Assembly: GCA_026706485.1 (NCBI GenBank)
Contig: JAPOYR010000006.1
Location: 21,194 to 85,193 of the forward strand
Direction of reading: 5' to 3'
Source of the DNA: Chloroflexota bacterium
GTDB lineage: Bacteria; Chloroflexota; UBA11872
DNA length: 64,000 nucleotides
Positions 6,465 through 20,417 of this stretch are shown piece after piece; position 1 is the stretch's first letter; the number at the start of each line of letters is the position of its first letter. Position numbers and translations under genes: made by a program. The notes under the pieces were generated by a model. That model had not been told where the DNA came from. It ran no database searches and worked only from the letters and a program-made list of their open reading frames with translations.

Positions 6465-6589
6465 CTCCGTCATTCCCGTGAAGGCGGAAATCCACCCCTA
6501 GTTGAACCTGGGGGCGGAAGGTATGCGCCCGGTCATCCCCAAGCCCGAATGGACTTGGCAAGGGTCTCCGAAGACGGGAGTCCATCCCC
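6465..6589. repeat. MITE-like palindromic element, family A copy 2
   Basis: ctccgtcattcccgtgaaggcggaaatccacccctagttgaacctgggggcggaagg... collinear with copy 1. Lies between the Phd/VapC and MazEF modules. Confidence 0.7.
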
Positions 6590-6638
6590 ACAGGTCAACC
6601 GCTGCCGTTTCGTCCACCGCCCGCGCCGTTCGCGGCGC

Positions 6639-6983
6639 TCACAGATCAAGAACCAGGCGCACGCCGGCCGCGATCCGGGACAGCAGCCGCCTTGGGGCTT
6701 GGCCGGCCCGCTCGACCAGATAGTCGCGATCCAGCGTTACGACTTGGGTCGCGTTGGCCACCGAATCCCTGGGAAGGCCCACGTCCGCACCGGGAACCAG
6801 GACGTTGCCGGGGGCGTCGAGCAAGCGCATGTTCGTCGTGAGGGCCACAGCGATCACTGTGCGCAGCCGGCTGCGGTTGAACGAATCGGCCTGGATGATG
6901 AGGACGGGACGCCGAAATCCGGGCTCGGAGCCGCGCGGCTCGGCCAGGTCGGCCCACCACACCTCGCCGCGCTCGACTACCAC
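6639..6983 (-). CDS. mazF: MazF/PemK-family endoribonuclease toxin
   Basis: RGEVWWADL...PGFRRPVLIIQ is the canonical PemK/MazF N-terminal signature; 114 aa. Confidence 0.75.
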   Translation of the reverse strand: MVVERGEVWWADLAEPRGSEPGFRRPVLIIQADSFNRSRLRTVIAVALTTNMRLLDAPGNVLVPGADVGLPRDSVANATQVVTLDRDYLVERAGQAPRRLLSRIAAGVRLVLDL

Positions 6984-7536: not shown

Positions 7537-8108
7537 TAGGCGACGGAGACTTCCAGGACCTGGAACTCGGACGAGGCGGGCAGAGGCTCCCCGTGCTCAC
7601 GCATGCTCGCCAGGTAGCCGCGAATGGCCTCGCGGATATTGGCGAGCGCCTCGTCTCGCGTCCGACCCTGGCTATGGCATCCCGGAAGCGTGGGACAGCT
7701 CACCGCCTCCCAGCCGTCCTCGTCGCGCTCGAAGACCACCAGCAGGTTCAGGAGGTCCTGGCCGGCCCCGGGCGCATCCAACGCCACCGTCGCCCCCGGC
7801 GTGGGCTCGGACGCATGAGCCGCGGCGTTCCGCATGGACGCGGAAGCTCTGTACACCCTCGTGTCCGGCCGCTCCGAGATCTGAAACCCGAGTCTGCTGA
7901 GGATTCGGAAGGCGTCTTGTGAGGTGAATCCCGGCGACGTCAGACCGGTGACCAACTGCAGCACTTGCCTGATCGGGAATCGGCGCCCGTGAAGGTCAAT
8001 GAAGTATTTGTGGCGCCCGTCGGCAGCGTTGGGCTCAACGCCCCGCGTGACATCCCGGACGATCTCCGGCGTGATCGTGTACTGCGCGCTTCGAATCCGA
8101 AACTCCAT
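7536..8108 (-). CDS. hicB: HicB-family antitoxin (RNase H-like fold) fused to an unrecognised N-terminal domain
   Basis: C-terminal LLNLLVVFERDEDGWEAVSCPTLPGCHSQGRTRDEALANIREAI is the UPF0150/HicB signature. The N-terminal ~100 aa (MEFRIRSAQYTIT...RLGFQISERP) is not part of canonical HicB. Start chosen at MEFRIRS (ORF extends to 8249). Confidence 0.6.
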   Translation of the reverse strand: MEFRIRSAQYTITPEIVRDVTRGVEPNAADGRHKYFIDLHGRRFPIRQVLQLVTGLTSPGFTSQDAFRILSRLGFQISERPDTRVYRASASMRNAAAHASEPTPGATVALDAPGAGQDLLNLLVVFERDEDGWEAVSCPTLPGCHSQGRTRDEALANIREAIRGYLASMREHGEPLPASSEFQVLEVSVA

Positions 8109-8308
8109 CAAGTATCCCCGGAGTTCTTTCTTCTTTCTCTTACTTCTTCGACGATAGCATGCTCCGCGGATGGTGCAGGAGCCGGCTCCATCCAGTCCGT
8201 CGCGCTCGATGTGGGCGCCAGACAGCAGACCAGGCTCCAAGGCATGCATCCGAACCGTCCGCGGCTTATGGTAGAAATGCTCTCCATGCTTCTACCCTGA
8301 GAATCTCG

Positions 8309-14970: not shown

Positions 14971-16113
14971 ATGAAGATCTCCAAGCTGCAATGCGATTTC
15001 ATCTGGACGGGTTCCCGCAACTGGCTCATCGTGCGCGTGCACACCGACGCGGGCATCACCGGCATCGGCGAGGCGTTTCCGATCGGACCCGACCGCGCCA
15101 TTGCCGAGACAGTCGATTACTTCCAATCGTGGATCGGAGGCTGGGATCCGTTCGACATCGAGCGCGTCTGGCACGAGCTCTACGCCGGCAGCCGCTTTCC
15201 CACCGGCTCGATCATCACGTCGGCCATCAGCGGCATCGACCAGGCGCTGTGGGACATCAAGGGCCGGGCGCTCGGCGTGCCGGTCTACGAGCTGCTCGGG
15301 GGCAAGGTGCGCGACCGCATCCGCGTCTACCAGTCGCCCGAGGGCGAGACGCCCGCCGCGCTTGCGGACGACGCTCGCCGCCTGGTCGAGCGCTATGGCT
15401 TCACCGCGCTCAAGATCGGCCCCTTCGCCGCGGCCGCCGACGCCTGGCCGTGGAGCCGGCAGGTCGATAGCGCCGAGGAAAGACTGGCGGCCGTGCGCGA
15501 CGCGGTCGGTCCCGACATCGACATCGGCGTCGATCCCCACGCCAAGATCTTCGAGCCCGTGCGCGCGCTGGAGATGGCCGAGCGACTGAAGCCTTATCGT
15601 CCGATGTTCTTCGAGGAACCGGTGCGGCCCGAGAACTTCGAGGCCCTGGCCAAGCTCACCGCCAAGAGTCCCATCCCCATCGCCACCGGCGAGGCGGTGT
15701 TCACCAAGTTCCAGTTCCGCGACCTGCTGGCGACGGGCGCCGCCGACATCATCCAGCCCGACGTGGCCGCCACGGGCGGGCTGACGGAGATGAAGAAGAT
15801 CGCGGCCATGGCCGAGGCGCACTACGTCAGCGTCGCGCCGCACAACCCGCTGGGACCGCTGGCGACGACGTCCAACGTGCACTTCGCCGCCACCGCGCCC
15901 AACTTCCTCATCCTCGAGTATCACGCCGACGACGTGGGCCTGCGGGCCGAAATCCTGCACGAGCCGCTGAAGCTGGAGGACGGCTACGTAGTGCTGCCCG
16001 ACGCGCCGGGACTGGGCGTCGAGTTGAACGAGGAGGTGTTCGAGAAATACCCCTACCGCCCCTGGCGCCGCGGCCGCCCCACCAAGGCGGACGGGATGTT
16101 GGCGTTCATCTAG
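14971..16113 (+). CDS. Enolase-superfamily sugar-acid dehydratase (mandelate racemase/muconate lactonizing enzyme family)
   Basis: 380 aa; D-galactonate/L-fuconate dehydratase-like. Metal-ligand region IDIGVDPH...FEEP...DIIQPD. Its TAG stop lies inside the transposon target-site duplication. Confidence 0.8.
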   Translation: MKISKLQCDFIWTGSRNWLIVRVHTDAGITGIGEAFPIGPDRAIAETVDYFQSWIGGWDPFDIERVWHELYAGSRFPTGSIITSAISGIDQALWDIKGRALGVPVYELLGGKVRDRIRVYQSPEGETPAALADDARRLVERYGFTALKIGPFAAAADAWPWSRQVDSAEERLAAVRDAVGPDIDIGVDPHAKIFEPVRALEMAERLKPYRPMFFEEPVRPENFEALAKLTAKSPIPIATGEAVFTKFQFRDLLATGAADIIQPDVAATGGLTEMKKIAAMAEAHYVSVAPHNPLGPLATTSNVHFAATAPNFLILEYHADDVGLRAEILHEPLKLEDGYVVLPDAPGLGVELNEEVFEKYPYRPWRRGRPTKADGMLAFI

Positions 16114-16203
16114 GGGATTATATACTTGACTTGATGCCAAGGCGCGGGAACGCTGGTCCGCCCCGCTGGCCGGAACCAACGGGGCGGTACCATTTTCGCT
16201 CGT

Positions 16204-16272
16204 GGGGCTGCCCCTGGTGGGGGCCGCGAAGGTTAGAGCTTGCCGGCGAGGGTTCGATCCCCTCCAGCTCCA
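16204..16272 (+). ncRNA. tRNA-like structure A (acceptor stem plus T-arm, non-canonical core)
   Basis: GGGGCTG...GAGGGTTCGATCCCCTC-CAGCTCC-A: 7-bp acceptor stem (one G-U) and canonical GGTTCGATCC T-arm. The 35-nt core cannot be folded into standard D and anticodon arms. No encoded CCA. Confidence 0.3.
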
Positions 16273-16603
16273 CACCACAGCCTAGCACGCTACCGCGCTA
16301 GCGCTGGCCTTTCGAGTCGTCGCCGTCCGACGCCTGCACCCGTAGGAGCGCCTTGGCTAGCTCCTCCGGCGTCGCGTCGTTCGGTGGGACCACGACCCGG
16401 AGTCGCTTGGCGGGCTTCGTCGGTTTCCGCGATCGTCGGGCCATGCCGAAGTATACCCCGCCACCTTTGGTACCCTTCGCGCCAGCATCAGGTCCGCGCC
16501 CGTGGCGTGGGATTCCCGGCAGCCCCAGACGGGGGCCGGGTGACCTGATGCTATGGGAATCCACCGGCAGCCGCTGGGGCTGCCCTACGTCAAGGAGTCG
16601 GGC

Positions 16604-16960
16604 ATGGATTTCACCGGGTACTTGGTCATATTCCTGGTCGTGATCGTCGTTGGCGGCGTCATTCGCTTGGCGCTCCAATCACGTCAGGAGGCGCAGGATC
16701 ATGGCGGGACGACGGACCTTGCGGAGCTCTACCGCGAGGGATGGCGCACCGAATCCGAGACCGGCACGCACGTGTTTCTCGTGAAGGGCCAGCGCGTAAA
16801 TCACATCCTGCACTTGCTGCTCTGCATCCCGACGTTCGGGCTCTGGCTGTTGGTCTGGCTGTTCGTGGCCGCGTCCGGTGGGGAACAGCGGCGGACCGTC
16901 CGCAAGGACAGCCCCGAGAGTCCGTCAAGTGACACGACCGACCGCGGCTCGCGCACCTGA
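16604..16960 (+). CDS. Small membrane protein (118 aa, 3 predicted TM), transposon cargo
   Basis: Start MDFTGYLVIFLVVIVVGGV preceded by AAGGAG RBS. TM1, charged loop, then hairpin HILHLLLCIPTFGLWLLVWLFVAAS. No family recognised. Confidence 0.5.
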   Translation: MDFTGYLVIFLVVIVVGGVIRLALQSRQEAQDHGGTTDLAELYREGWRTESETGTHVFLVKGQRVNHILHLLLCIPTFGLWLLVWLFVAASGGEQRRTVRKDSPESPSSDTTDRGSRT

Positions 16961-17103
16961 GGCCCAGCGGGTACCCTTCGCGCACCACTGGATGCGCGCT
17001 CGCGCGCGTCATATCCCGGCAGCCTCAGGCGTTGCTCGGGTGATCCAGTGGTATGGGATATGCGCCCCAGCACACGGCTGGGGCTGTCGTTTGGAGGGGT
17101 CGT

Positions 17104-17307
17104 GTGTTTACATCCATTGGGCCGCTAGAAATCCTCAGCCTGCTGCCTCTCGTGGTCATTGGGTTCCTGTTCGCCATCGCGACGTCCGCGTCAGCAACAC
17201 AGCGCGGGCACCACTGGCTGGGATGGTTCATCTGCGGCCTGTGCCTGGGGCCGCTGGCGCTGTGCTTCGCCCTGAGCCTGCAGGACTATCGGCGGGACGT
17301 AGACTGA
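17104..17307 (+). CDS. Small two-TM membrane protein (about 67 aa), transposon cargo
   Basis: GTG start after GGAGGGG RBS. VFTSIGPLEILSLLPLVVIGFLFAIA...WLGWFICGLCLGPLALCFAL. Confidence 0.35.
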   Translation: MFTSIGPLEILSLLPLVVIGFLFAIATSASATQRGHHWLGWFICGLCLGPLALCFALSLQDYRRDVD

Positions 17308-17311
17308 AGGC

Positions 17312-17659
17312 GTGCTGACGGATGACCAGCGCGTCTCGATGGGAGCACGCATGATCGCGAAAACGGGTCGCCTCGCGGACGTTGACGCGACGGTCCTAGA
17401 GGACGCCTTGGCCGAGATCGAAACGCTGACGGCGCACCTCTCACCCGACGTTCAGGATTCAGTGGCCAAGCAGTTCGTAAAAGCGTTTGGCGAGTGCCCC
17501 ACGCTCAGTCTGGAGCGTAAATCCGCACACTCGACACGTGAGGTCATTGCCCGAGTTCAACTCCCGGACCGTTGCCGGGAAATCCTCGCCGCAGTCCGGG
17601 CAGGTGAGGTTGAGCGTGTGGTTCTGATTGAGTTCCAGGCGCCAACGGGAGCGTCGTGA
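17312..17659 (+). CDS. Hypothetical soluble protein (115 aa), transposon cargo
   Basis: ORF with moderate GC3. Overlapped on the opposite strand by a 74-aa CxxC...CxxC zinc-ribbon ORF (17459-17683). Which strand is real is unresolved. Confidence 0.35.
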   Translation: MLTDDQRVSMGARMIAKTGRLADVDATVLEDALAEIETLTAHLSPDVQDSVAKQFVKAFGECPTLSLERKSAHSTREVIARVQLPDRCREILAAVRAGEVERVVLIEFQAPTGAS

Positions 17660-17780
17660 GGATCGTCGTCGCCGTGATACCATCGGCTGCCTTTCAGACC
17701 GCGTCCGGCATATTGGTTGCTGCCAAGCCGGGCGCGGTTTGTGTTTGCCCTTCAGGAACCCCTGATACTACCCCAACCGC

Positions 17781-18737
17781 CTACCGCTTGGGGTAGGCCC
17801 GCCCGCCGGCCGTGAGGTCCGCGTAGGTCAGGCGTTCGCCCACCATCCGGGCCGCAACCTCGCCCATGAGGTCCGCCGTGTCGAGTTCCCGGAGGCTCTG
17901 CCGGGTGGCCATCTCGTCCACGTAGCGCTGCAAGTGCTTGGGGCTGAAGTGGTGGTACGTCCCGTGGTAGGCCCGCTTGAGCATGGCCCAGAAGGACTCG
18001 ATGCCGTTCGTGTGCGCCTGGTCGTTCACGTACTCGCCCACACTGTGGCGGACGGTCTCGTGGTGCGGCAGGTGGTCGTAGGCCGGGTGCTCGTCCGTGT
18101 AGACCATGGCGTCCGGCGCCGCGTGGGCCGTGATGAAGAGGGCTAGCACGCTGCGGTTGATGTGGGTGATCGCCTGGGCGCGGACCTCGCGCGTCGTGCG
18201 GTCGCGCATGGCGATCACCGGAGCCTTGCCGATCGTCCCACGCCCGCGGTGCTGGCGATCCCGCGCGTGGCGGTTCTTCTCGCGGCCGCCGAAGTAGGAC
18301 TCGTCCACTTCGACCGGCCCGTCCAGCAAGTGGTCGTCAGCCGCCAGCGCTTCGCGGATGCGGTGGGCCATGAACCACGCGGACTTCTGCGTGATCTCGA
18401 GGTCGCGGTGGAGTTTCAGGCTCGACACGCCCTTGAGGTTCGTGGTGCTCAGGTAGATGCCCCACGCCCACTGGCGGAGCGTGATCTTGGAGCGCTCCAT
18501 GACGGTGCCGATCCGCACGCTGAAGTACTGGCGGCAGTCACGGCACCGGTAGGGCATGGGCTTGCCGCTGGCGACCGGCGTCACGTGCTCGCCGTCGCAG
18601 CGCGCGCACCGGACGCCATCGGGCCAGCGCTGGGCCTCAAACCACCGGCGGGCGGATTCCTCGTTCGGGAACCGGTCGGCCAGTTCCATGACGCTGATGC
18701 CCTCGCGGTGCGCTCGTCCGGGTCCCTTGGTCGCCAT
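17781..18737 (-). CDS. IS1595-family (ISXO2-like) DDE transposase
   Basis: 318 aa; N-terminal zinc-ribbon (CARCDGEH...CRDCRQYF), SYFGGREKN, GKAPVIAMRDRTT, YTDEHPAY motifs characteristic of IS1595/ISXO2 transposases. Confidence 0.85.
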   Translation of the reverse strand: MATKGPGRAHREGISVMELADRFPNEESARRWFEAQRWPDGVRCARCDGEHVTPVASGKPMPYRCRDCRQYFSVRIGTVMERSKITLRQWAWGIYLSTTNLKGVSSLKLHRDLEITQKSAWFMAHRIREALAADDHLLDGPVEVDESYFGGREKNRHARDRQHRGRGTIGKAPVIAMRDRTTREVRAQAITHINRSVLALFITAHAAPDAMVYTDEHPAYDHLPHHETVRHSVGEYVNDQAHTNGIESFWAMLKRAYHGTYHHFSPKHLQRYVDEMATRQSLRELDTADLMGEVAARMVGERLTYADLTAGGRAYPKR

Positions 18738-18808
18738 GCGTTGACCTCCGTTAAATGTGTGTAGCGACCGGGCCGACGAGATACCCGGTCGCTACACTCT
18801 CGTCTTGT

Positions 18809-18877
18809 GGGGCTGCCTCTGGCGAGGGCCGTGGGCTTCTAATCCAGGCGGCGAGGGTTCGATTCCCTCCAGCTCCA
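18809..18877 (+). ncRNA. tRNA-like structure B (same acceptor and T-arm as A, different core)
   Basis: GGGGCTGCC...GAGGGTTCGATTCCCTC-CAGCTCC-A, 69 nt. Shares the first 11 nt and last about 25 nt with structure A. Central 35 nt differ (contains CTTCTAAT loop-like segment). Direct orientation relative to A, 75 nt upstream of the transposase start. Confidence 0.3.
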
Positions 18878-19029
18878 TCTCCCAGGATGCGCGGCGGCCC
18901 GCCGCTCGTCAATCGAACAGAAACCGGACGGGCCATGTCGTGTGCTCCCTTCACTTCCTGCCCTAAGCGTAGTGGAATCCCGCCCGTTTGTCAAGTCAAG
19001 TATATAATCCCCTTCATCTAGGAATACTG

Positions 19030-19210
19030 ACGCAGCGAGTCTGGTCCCCTCATCCCACCCTTCTCCCCTGGGGAGAAGGAGCCGGACCAGCTGCCGGGTT
19101 GGGAGATGCCGCCACCGAAACTCTCCCGTCGCCGCTCGGTCGGCCCGCGGGCGACAGTCCGGTTCCCTCTCCCACAGGGAGAGGGTTAGGGTGAGGGGAT
19201 CTGCCCTGGG
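19030..19210. repeat. Nested palindromic repeat block (family F)
   Basis: cccctcatcccaccc TTCTCCCCTGGGGAGAA ... CCCTCTCCCACAGGGAGAGGG ttagggtgagggg: several perfect hairpins enclosed by an outer inverted pair. Gives spurious PSPTGRGLG-type ORFs. Confidence 0.55.
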
Positions 19211-19238
19211 CGAAACCGGGGTTGGCGACGACGGCCGT

Positions 19239-20417
19239 CTAGCTCGCCAAGACCTCCCGCAGAAGCCCGCCAATCTGCCGCAGCGTGTCAGGCCGCAGCA
19301 GGCCGAAGTTGTAGACCGCCACGCGGTCGACCGGCAGTTGCGCAATGCGCTCCAGCCGCGCGGCGAAATCGGGACCGCCGGGGTCGAACTCATCGGAGCC
19401 CCACAGCATGACCGCCAGCTCGATCTCACGCCGGGCCGACCGCGCCAGCGCGACCTGTCGCTTGGCCTCGTCGGCCTCGTCCGTCGGGTCCGGTAGCAGC
19501 AGGCCGTCGATCCGGGATGCCAAATCGGCCAGGCGCAGACCGGTGGGCCCCCAGCCTGCCGACGCGTGCGTCAGATTCAGGCGCGTTCCGGTTCCTCGCA
19601 GCGCGCGCTGCACGTCTTCCACCAGGCGTGTCGCCGATTGCTCGCGGGCTTCCAGGTAGCCGCGGAACTCCTCGTCCGCCTCGCCGCGCGCCGCGATCAT
19701 GGCCTCGAGGTCGCCGGACTCCTGTCTGCGTGACAGGCGATTGCGTAGCTCCCGCGCCACAGCCTCGCGCACCTCCACGGCGTCCACGCCGTGCGCCCGC
19801 GCCGCCGTGAGGCAGTTCTCGCAAAAGCACATCCCGGCCAGAAACCGGGTCCACGGATCGAAATCGATCAGAATGCGCTCGCGCACCCACCCGTAGGCAA
19901 ACTCCGGATGCCCCGGCCGCTCCAGCAGCGCGCTGTGCACGGGGTACTGGTCGCAGAGATCGCCCACCAGCGTTGCCAGATACTCCTGCACGTCCGGGCT
20001 CGCCGGGCACGTGGTGGCAAAGCTGCGTGCGCCGAAGGCGTTTTCCACCGCCGTATCGGGATAGGTGCGGGCGATCCACGGCTGGAGCATGCCGATCACC
20101 CAGGCATTGAGTTGGATGCCGCGTGACGGGGCGTGCTCGGCGGCCTGCGCGTAGGCGCTCAGCACCTCCGGCTCAGCGAAGACGCGGGGCTCGATGCGTC
20201 CGTACCGCTCGGCGCGGGCCGGAAAATACACCGCGCCCTGCTCGGAGTAGTGAATCGACCGCCCCAGGTTGCGCGGCGCGAAGGTCGAGATGGCGTGGTA
20301 GTTGGGGCAAAGCTCGATCGCCTCGAAGCCCGCGTCCCGCAGCCAGTCCAGCGCCGCCGCCACGCCCTCGTCGGCCAGGTCCCACGGATAGACCCAGACG
20401 GAGATTCGGCGATGCAT
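19239..20417 (-). CDS. Hypothetical protein (possible TIM-barrel glycosyl-hydrolase-like)
   Basis: 392 aa, good coding GC3, no motif I can name with confidence. Confidence 0.35.
   Translation of the reverse strand: MHRRISVWVYPWDLADEGVAAALDWLRDAGFEAIELCPNYHAISTFAPRNLGRSIHYSEQGAVYFPARAERYGRIEPRVFAEPEVLSAYAQAAEHAPSRGIQLNAWVIGMLQPWIARTYPDTAVENAFGARSFATTCPASPDVQEYLATLVGDLCDQYPVHSALLERPGHPEFAYGWVRERILIDFDPWTRFLAGMCFCENCLTAARAHGVDAVEVREAVARELRNRLSRRQESGDLEAMIAARGEADEEFRGYLEAREQSATRLVEDVQRALRGTGTRLNLTHASAGWGPTGLRLADLASRIDGLLLPDPTDEADEAKRQVALARSARREIELAVMLWGSDEFDPGGPDFAARLERIAQLPVDRVAVYNFGLLRPDTLRQIGGLLREVLAS

Follow-up and report, generated by a model that had tools for sequence, protein, structure and literature searches.

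An IS1595-family transporter element at the end of a dehydratase gene

The segment 16113-19012 of a 64,000-nucleotide stretch of an uncultured Chloroflexota genome (contig JAPOYR010000006.1; the whole stretch is referred to as the window, coordinates are positions in it unless another locus is named, and L followed by a number denotes a comparison locus) is almost certainly an intact, passenger-carrying element of the IS1595 family of insertion sequences (IS), that is a 'transporter IS' (tIS), which is flanked by an 8-bp target-site duplication (TSD) and has been inserted at the very end of a galactonate-dehydratase-like gene. The clean delimitation of this element by inverted repeats (IRs), TSD and an empty site in sister strains makes the irregular tRNA-like genes and the structured leader that it contains bona fide cargo of a DDE transposon. 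This cargo, with the functions that we infer for its RNAs, is more interesting than the transposon itself.

The element is 2,900 bp long. Its left repeat, IRL (GGGGATTATATACTTGACTTGA, 16113-16134, + strand), and its right repeat, IRR (18991-19012, - strand), are exact reverse complements over 22 of 22 bp, and the perfect repeats proposed in an earlier, sequence-only reading were thus recovered on re-alignment. The sequence has only these two matches in the 64 kb even when up to three mismatches are allowed, and none in 100 shuffles. The octamer TTCATCTA lies directly outside both repeats and is exact on both sides, as had been reported (left copy 16105-16112; right copy 19013-19020, adjoining IRR), and the lengths of IRs and TSD are those of IS1595 elements (short IRs, 8-bp TSD). 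The left copy comprises the final two sense codons and the TA of the stop codon of the upstream open reading frame (ORF; 14971-16113), a dehydratase that matches Pfam MR_MLE_N and MR_MLE_C as well as the NCBIfam galactonate dehydratase. The stop codon of this gene (TAG, 16111-16113) had been placed inside the duplicated target; the insertion is indeed located at the 3' end of the gene, but the duplication holds the TA only, while the G is the first base of IRL. The pre-insertion sequence, ...TTCATCTA followed directly by GGAATAC, also gives TAG, and because the host base to the right of the duplication is likewise a G, both the stop codon and the protein were left unchanged by the insertion.

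Comparison with two sister strains (L218 and L219) shows the site before insertion. The dehydratase orthologue is 98% identical, the gene order is the same (Pup ligase, OCD, EamA, dehydratase, a convergent gene of about 400 aa, aminotransferase, MIP), the element is absent and the octamer is single. The empty site reads ...GGCGTTCATCTAA... in L219 and ...GGCGTTTATCTAA... in L218, with a single TTCATCTA/TTTATCTA, and no element is found between the dehydratase gene and the convergent gene (392 aa in L219, 412 aa in L218). As 2.9 kb are missing and the octamer is single in these strains, the segment represents, as had been supposed, a true insertion and is not ancestral, and no sister strain was seen to carry the 2.9-kb segment without IRs or TSD; the empty site was found instead. 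The identical dehydratase occurs on five contigs, all of which contain the element. A second site for the exact element was sought by exact-protein look-up of the transposase, which returned one site only, on three contigs. A scan of the metagenomes at the Joint Genome Institute (JGI) retrieved no transposase more than 54% identical, all of them distant relatives, and contributed nothing on the cargo. The interior of the element had been described as visibly lower in GC content; the dip is real but slight (65.8%, compared to 69.0% and 67.3% in the 5-kb flanks), and within the element the cargo is at 65.1% and the transposase gene at 69.1%.

The single transposase gene (17781-18737, - strand) encodes a protein of 318 aa with the zinc ribbon and ISXO2-like DDE domain assigned to it in the sequence-only reading. 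It matches Pfam Zn_ribbon_IS1595 (PF12760, E 1e-7) and DDE_Tnp_IS1595 (PF12762, E 6e-39), as well as the NCBIfam model IS1595 (NF033547) with 191.8 bits against a cutoff of 75 (E 1e-56), and the identical protein bears the NCBI name 'IS1595 family transposase [Chloroflexi bacterium]'. The window corresponds to scaffold_88 of the ENA metagenome ERZ23499944. The zinc-ribbon cysteines are C44/C47 and C65/C68, and the catalytic DDE-K residues, located by reading the sequence, are D145 in VEVDESYFGG, D215 in MVYTDEH, and E247 and K254 in TNGIESFWAMLK. The transposase gene is probably transcribed from a promoter that begins at the inner edge of IRR, where the motif TTGACA is found 17 nt from TACGCT, an arrangement kept in relatives. 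By way of these domains, the transposase would bind both 22-bp ends and join them to a target whose two strands are cut 8 bp apart. IRs, TSD, domains and empty sites together bear out the original proposal of a cargo-bearing IS1595-family element inserted at the 3' end of an enolase-superfamily gene.

Two points limit parts of this interpretation. Only one insertion site of the exact element is on record, on contigs of one population, so that its current activity is no more than presumptive. In addition, the placement in the ISNwi1 subgroup, suggested by the terminal motif, is likely but tentative; GGGGATTAT fits the end consensus of this group in ISfinder (ggnnatTAT). The names given by PGAP to plasmid homologues read 'IS1595 family transposase', with no subgroup.

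Related elements and the transporter-IS norm

In order to place the element among its relatives, one genome per species was scanned, which gave 80 further loci, and ends and TSDs were counted in 86 loci. An element was regarded as delimited when it had paired ends starting GGGRATTATATAC and an 8-bp duplication with at most one mismatch. This holds for 47 of the 86 loci, which have the terminal motif of IRL in common, and the duplication is exact in 44 of them; a TSD length of 8 bp is thus found in 46 delimited relatives besides the window element. The 47 delimited elements span 1,119-5,986 bp, with 37 of them reaching 1.9 kb or more. Close relatives, located by transposases 77-87% identical, have the same ends and an 8-bp TSD around 2.0-3.6 kb of DNA wherever they can be delimited: L002 (2,223 bp, TSD TTTGCAAA), L003 (3,226 bp, TATGCAAA), L004 (3,617 bp, TTTGCAAA), L167 (2,856 bp, ATCAGGAA), L168 (3,045 bp, TSD with one mismatch) and L169 (1,977 bp, CTTCAATA). 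For the end pair of L006 no matching duplication was found, and this locus was therefore left out of the delimited set. One metagenome-assembled genome (MAG) of Ruegeria contains a 2.75-kb cargo-bearing relative at three sites with three different TSDs (L026, L028 and L045), which indicates, though indirectly, that such units of the clade transpose in one piece with their cargo.

IS1595 elements carrying passenger genes have been defined as tIS (Siguier, Gagnevin & Chandler 2009; TnCentral). The view that cargo is unusual for the family can consequently not be upheld, both since tIS are already defined for it and since 37 of 47 delimited relatives reach at least 1.9 kb; as a transposon, the window element is one more tIS of a family already known for its passengers. 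Like other tIS it has a single zinc-ribbon/DDE-K transposase, short IRs starting GGnnATTAT, an 8-bp TSD and passengers inside the IRs (here three to four protein ORFs and two tRNA-like genes), and its size falls within their range of 1.7-4.8 kb. It differs in that the host is an uncultured member of the Chloroflexota, and in that the cargo, instead of resistance or metabolic genes, comprises tRNA-like genes, small exported proteins driven by a leader and the conserved protein of 48 aa. Searches of the literature returned no account of tRNA cargo in an IS1595 element.

Two further observations were made on the relatives. The terminal motif GGGAATTATATAC is common to MAGs of Nitrosopumilaceae/Thaumarchaeota (L023, L039 and L062) and to bacterial loci in the range L007-L086, with transposases of 41-50% identity; L023 also has an 8-bp duplication, and several of the MAGs in this comparison bear the names of sponge symbionts. 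The occurrence of the end motif in Alphaproteobacteria, Acidobacteriota and Nitrosopumilaceae archaea hints at a cross-domain exchange of the clade in common, possibly sponge-associated habitats. At L168 a canonical tRNA gene (8045-8118, - strand, 64 bits) lies some 115 nt beyond the element's left end, and this copy is therefore inserted beside a host tRNA gene.

Two compact tRNA-like genes

The two tRNA-like structures noticed by the sequence-only reading are both present and predicted to fold into cloverleaves, and both are below all detection thresholds. They are designated t1 (16204-16273, + strand) and t2 (18809-18878, + strand), measure 70 nt each, are 88% identical paralogues and run antisense to the transposase gene. 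Each is preceded by a predicted hairpin that ends 11 nt before it, of which hairpin 1 (16154-16192, + strand) is GC-rich and hairpin 2 (18759-18797, + strand) has a perfect 14-bp stem (z-score of hairpin 2 together with t2, -3.3). The predicted fold of t1 and t2 is a compact four-way junction, a cloverleaf with no linker nucleotides and no variable loop. In both, the acceptor stem consists of 7 bp (GGGGCUG/CAGCUCC) and has G3:U70, the identity pair for alanine, together with A73, which makes both RNAs candidate substrates of alanyl-tRNA synthetase. The D arm of t1 has a 4-bp stem and a UGGU loop (UGGY across both genes), with a compensatory difference in the stem, CCCC/GGGG in t1 versus CCUC/GAGG in t2. 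The 'anticodon' arm has 8-9 bp and a 7-nt loop (GUUAGAG in t1, CUUCUAA in t2), and the T arm is canonical in both (GAGGG-UUCGAUC-CCCUC in t1).

At default settings, ARAGORN reported no tRNA genes and no tmRNA in the whole window. In Rfam no match to RF00005 was reported, and the best matches, of t1 to the tmRNA model (34.4 bits, E 2e-11) and of t2 to the tRNA-Sec model (32.6 bits), are below the gathering score of 47; t1 scores 96 bits with R2, the covariance model of the tRNA-like genes. The genes depart from canonical tRNAs in positions 8, 9 and 26, in the variable loop and in lacking a 5-bp anticodon stem. The similarity to the tRNA-like domain of tmRNA (RF00023) comprises the GGGGCUG 5' end, G3:U70, the UGG 'D-loop', and a helix set directly against the T arm with no variable loop in between; the T arm and the acceptor sequence on the 3' side are also the same as in many tmRNAs, and tmRNA is the best Rfam match of t1. 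However, t1 is 70 nt only and is devoid of an mRNA-like domain, a tag reading frame and pseudoknots, its D stem is paired and it reaches just 34 bits; only its tRNA-like part aligns, and about 300 model positions are skipped.

Allo-tRNAs are another point of comparison. Those with G3:U70 are charged with alanine whatever the anticodon, and a link to transposable elements had in earlier work only been suspected (Mukai et al. 2017, PMC5389517). The window genes are similar to them as non-canonical tRNA-like genes on or near mobile elements, but have a 7/5 structure with a 4-bp D stem, no variable arm and an 8-9-bp 'anticodon' arm, whereas allo-tRNAs divide a 12-bp acceptor branch 8/4 or 9/3, and both their D stem and their variable arm are long. 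The true 8/4 type is found as cargo of two close relatives. The cloverleaves at L002 (3959-4051, - strand) and L167 (5719-5811, - strand) have an 8-bp acceptor, a 6-bp D stem, a long variable arm, a 4-bp T stem and the Leu anticodon UAG, and are potential missense tRNAs on a DDE transposon. Altogether, tRNA cargo is present in the relatives L002, L006, L021, L041 (two tRNAs), L167 and L169, with those of L021, L169 and L006 above the Rfam gathering score, and a hairpin precedes the tRNA in each case examined. It is likely that t1 and t2 are expressed as small RNAs and are kin to the irregular, allo-tRNA-type genes known from mobile elements.

There is nevertheless a considerable, if lesser, chance that t1 and t2 are functionless remnants, either decayed passenger tRNA genes or the remains of integrase attachment sites that lay in a gene for tmRNA or tRNA-Ala. 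Several observations weigh in this direction: the structures are sub-threshold in both ARAGORN and Rfam, their bare cloverleaves have minimum-free-energy z-scores of only about -1.2, they are devoid of the nucleotides at 8/9 and 26 and in the variable loop, and a covariance model built of t1 and t2 found no further copy in 91 loci, so that they could be decaying pseudogenes. Moreover, their T arm and 3' acceptor sequence equals the 3' end of many tmRNAs, ends that serve as prophage attachment sites. Against this stand both acceptor halves and all four helices, which are intact in both paralogues, and the compensatory change in the D stem, which took place while the loops diverged. The element contains no integrase, and relatives carry full tRNAs in the same module of hairpin, tRNA and small ORF. 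A role in codon supply is unlikely and was rejected, given that the genes of the element contain hardly any CUA or AGA codons.

On viral contigs, some compact elements of 70-80 nt have this T arm and 3' acceptor sequence too, although a pattern scan of such contigs returned mostly tmRNA 3' ends and tRNA-Ala genes. These elements, on the IMG/VR contigs L175, L176, L181, L186/L188/L191/L212, L187 and L216, score 39-49 bits with the t1/t2 model. In them, a 5' end like that of tmRNA or tRNA-Ala (GGGGCUG...UGGU) runs straight into the T arm and the 3' end of the acceptor, and the mRNA-like domain is missing. Close to t1, a hybrid promoter-like site composed of host DNA and IRL (16099-16126, TTGGCG-16 nt-TATACT) reads into the element toward t1, and is the sole sigma-70-like match in the region.

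A structured leader shared by unrelated cargo genes

Two of the cargo genes in the window are preceded by copies of a leader of about 135 nt. Leader 1 (16469-16603, + strand), upstream of a gene for a 118-aa protein, comprises a putative -10 box (GGTACCCT) and a 5' untranslated region (5' UTR) with the helices P1, P2 and P4, and leader 2 (16970-17103, + strand) is a second copy of the same promoter/5' UTR module, upstream of a gene for a 67-aa protein. With six copies upstream of cargo ORFs in elements of relatives, at L002 (4725-4868, - strand), L004 (4631-4777, - strand), L217 (2949-3087, + strand), L168 (7131-7262, - strand), L169 (about 6720-6866, - strand) and L007 (about 6583-6745, - strand), eight copies are available for comparison. 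Three helices in the interleaved strand order P1-5', P2-5', P4-5', P1-3', P2-3', P4-3' can be drawn in all eight, and in seven of the eight they are at the same time the three longest helices. P1 (10 bp) and P2 (7 bp) are 100% paired on four copies, with changes on both sides in five and two pairs, respectively, and 90.7% of the cells in the four-copy alignment pair, compared to 35-51% after a shift of the partner strand by 1-3 columns. P4 (11 bp) is paired in 88 of 88 cells on eight copies, with four pairs changed on both sides. A U:G wobble in P4, found in four of the eight, would read as an A-C mismatch on the opposite strand, and the fold therefore belongs to the strand in the sense of the ORF.

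Every copy opens with a -10-like TACNNT (often TGGTAC) and closes with a Shine-Dalgarno sequence and a start codon, and for this reason the leader is read as a promoter with a 5' UTR. The ORFs that follow are mutually unrelated but all encode membrane or exported proteins: in the window the proteins of 118 and 67 aa, in L002 a protein of 157 aa with a membrane anchor, in L004 one of 203 aa with a signal peptide and in L168 a lipoprotein of 133 aa. The expression cassette would accordingly be built of a TACNNT -10 box, a 5' UTR of about 120 nt with three interleaved helices, a Shine-Dalgarno sequence and a small exported or membrane ORF. For the leader, Rfam 15 gave no match at E<=1 over 15500-19600, none in L002-L006 and none at E<=0.1 in L007, L021, L167-169 and L217. 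The leader is thus a candidate for a new, previously undescribed family of cis-regulatory RNA, which probably stabilises the cargo mRNAs or gates their translation. With eight copies, strong covariation and an uncommon interleaved topology, it is directly testable as such. The linkers between helix strands are, however, as short as 0-5 nt, and this counts against the fold as drawn, as three interleaved helices of 9-16 bp joined so closely may not form simultaneously; they may alternate rather than coexist. A function as terminator or attenuator was rejected, only one weak terminator-like site having been found, within leader 2.

An improbable alternative is that the leader acts at the DNA level, as an attC-like recombination site for the capture of cassettes, and not as a 5' UTR. 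The resemblance to integron cassettes is that small ORF units of unrelated function stand in tandem, each with a structured element of about 135 nt that is conserved in fold more than in sequence, as attC is; the window holds a tandem pair, and the order and orientation of the cargo are shuffled among relatives. In contrast to integrons, with their IntI and a single imperfect hairpin downstream of the ORF, the window element encodes no integrase or other site-specific recombinase, and its leader lies upstream of the ORF, begins with TACNNT and ends with a ribosome-binding site and start codon in every copy. The three helices are interleaved and do not form a simple hairpin, and the wobble in P4 fits only the ORF-sense strand, that of the mRNA.

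Taken as a 5' UTR, the leader may be considered together with the tRNA-like genes. A tentative proposal, which we consider possible but on balance doubtful, is that this Chloroflexota branch of IS1595 tIS carries an RNA toolkit of its own, consisting of tRNA- or tmRNA-like RNAs chargeable by alanyl-tRNA synthetase (with 8/4 Leu-UAG allo-tRNAs in sister elements) and a new class of 5' UTR riboregulators with the topology A B C A' B' C'. If true, the RNAs of the toolkit would act in translation or ribosome rescue, or would regulate the antisense transposase gene, while the three-helix riboregulator would control the small exported cargo proteins.

Protein cargo

A cargo protein conserved in all close relatives is encoded by a basic ORF of 48 aa (MARRSRKPTKPAKRLRVVVPPNDATPEELAKALLRV..., 16298-16444, - strand) with the motif RLxVVVPPN(T/D)ATPEELAKALLR, which was found by tblastn in 11 relatives (L002, L003, L004, L006, L007, L008, L009, L167, L168, L169 and L217). 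The ORF converges on t1 in the window, and likewise on the adjacent tRNA wherever one is present (L002, L006, L167 and L169); in L169 the module of hairpin, tRNA and ORF is inverted relative to the transposase gene. The 48-aa protein possibly has an accessory or regulatory role in this branch of tIS.

The ORFs downstream of the two leaders encode the small membrane proteins predicted by the sequence-only reading, with some corrections. The 118-aa protein (16604-16960, + strand) and its AAGGAG ribosome-binding site stand, while the three transmembrane segments claimed for it become two to three; a homologue that is 48% identical is found inside the L007 element, and otherwise only distant hypothetical membrane proteins of about 100 aa. 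The protein of about 67 aa with two transmembrane segments is confirmed at 67 aa (17104-17307, + strand, GTG start, GGAGG ribosome-binding site) and has a homologue 65% identical in L217. The soluble ORF, formerly called as 115 aa from 17312, is present, but M14 is the likelier start, giving 102 aa (17351-17659, + strand), and it is overlapped by an antisense ORF of 74 aa (17459-17683, - strand) directly downstream of the transposase gene. The 102-aa protein is 68% identical to P0155, which adjoins the IS1595 transposase gene in L217, and in the non-overlapping part the substitutions by codon position are 4/3/13, favouring the third. The 74-aa protein has a zinc ribbon (CPDC...CRVC), matches Pfam DUF7836 weakly (E 4.6e-5, below the cutoff) and is 70% identical in L217 with the four cysteines kept. 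Codon position 2 is in register in the overlap, where neither GC content at third positions nor substitution counts favour one ORF over the other, and the two ORFs may be a pair of real overlapping antisense genes. Pfam and NCBIfam gave no matches to the 48-aa, 67-aa, 102-aa and 118-aa proteins.

In the sister element L217, this leader, the ORFs of 67 and 102 aa and the transposase gene are arranged in a similar order, except that the 48-aa ORF is placed between the other two ORFs. Comparison with the relatives shows that the cargo consists of modules which have been shuffled within the family by recombination. It is scarcely conceivable that the segment is instead a pseudo-compound structure, namely an IS of about 1.2 kb with neighbouring host DNA ending at a solo or decayed second repeat, as might be read from the slightly lower GC content of the cargo and its variable order among relatives, since the ends are identical over 22 bp and the TSD flanks the whole 2.9 kb, the sister strains are without the entire segment and not just the transposase part, cargo ORFs, the 48-aa ORF and leaders recur inside other delimited elements at unrelated sites, and complete cargo-bearing relatives are present in several copies.

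A t2 module at the start of the transposase gene

The gene t2 and hairpin 2 belong to an inserted module of about 199 bp (18739-18931, + strand), bounded by a diverged direct repeat of 17-18 nt (GCCATG...CTCC, 18733-18750 and 18932-18949), which is missing from all close relatives. The distance from the right IR to the ATG of the transposase gene is 50-54 nt in L002, L003, L004, L167 and L169, compared to 253 nt in the window, and the short stretch in these five contains the conserved promoter-like TTGACA-17 nt-TACGCT and a ribosome-binding site. In the window, the module supplies a new GGAGG and ATG to the transposase gene. The old ATG (18936-18934) now opens an upstream ORF of 61 codons (18751-18936, - strand), which is read across the complementary strand of t2 and hairpin 2 and terminates 13 nt short of the new ATG. 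The module arrived with a ribosome-binding site and ATG of its own and landed at the transposase start, turning the former start into that of an upstream ORF.

To the right of the insertion, the intergenic region 19040-19200 contains two hairpin-forming repeats with a REP-like look, one being CCTTCTCCCCTGGGGAGAAGG and the other CCCTCTCCCACAGGGAGAGGG followed by TTAGGGTGAGGG, the latter with a single occurrence in the window.

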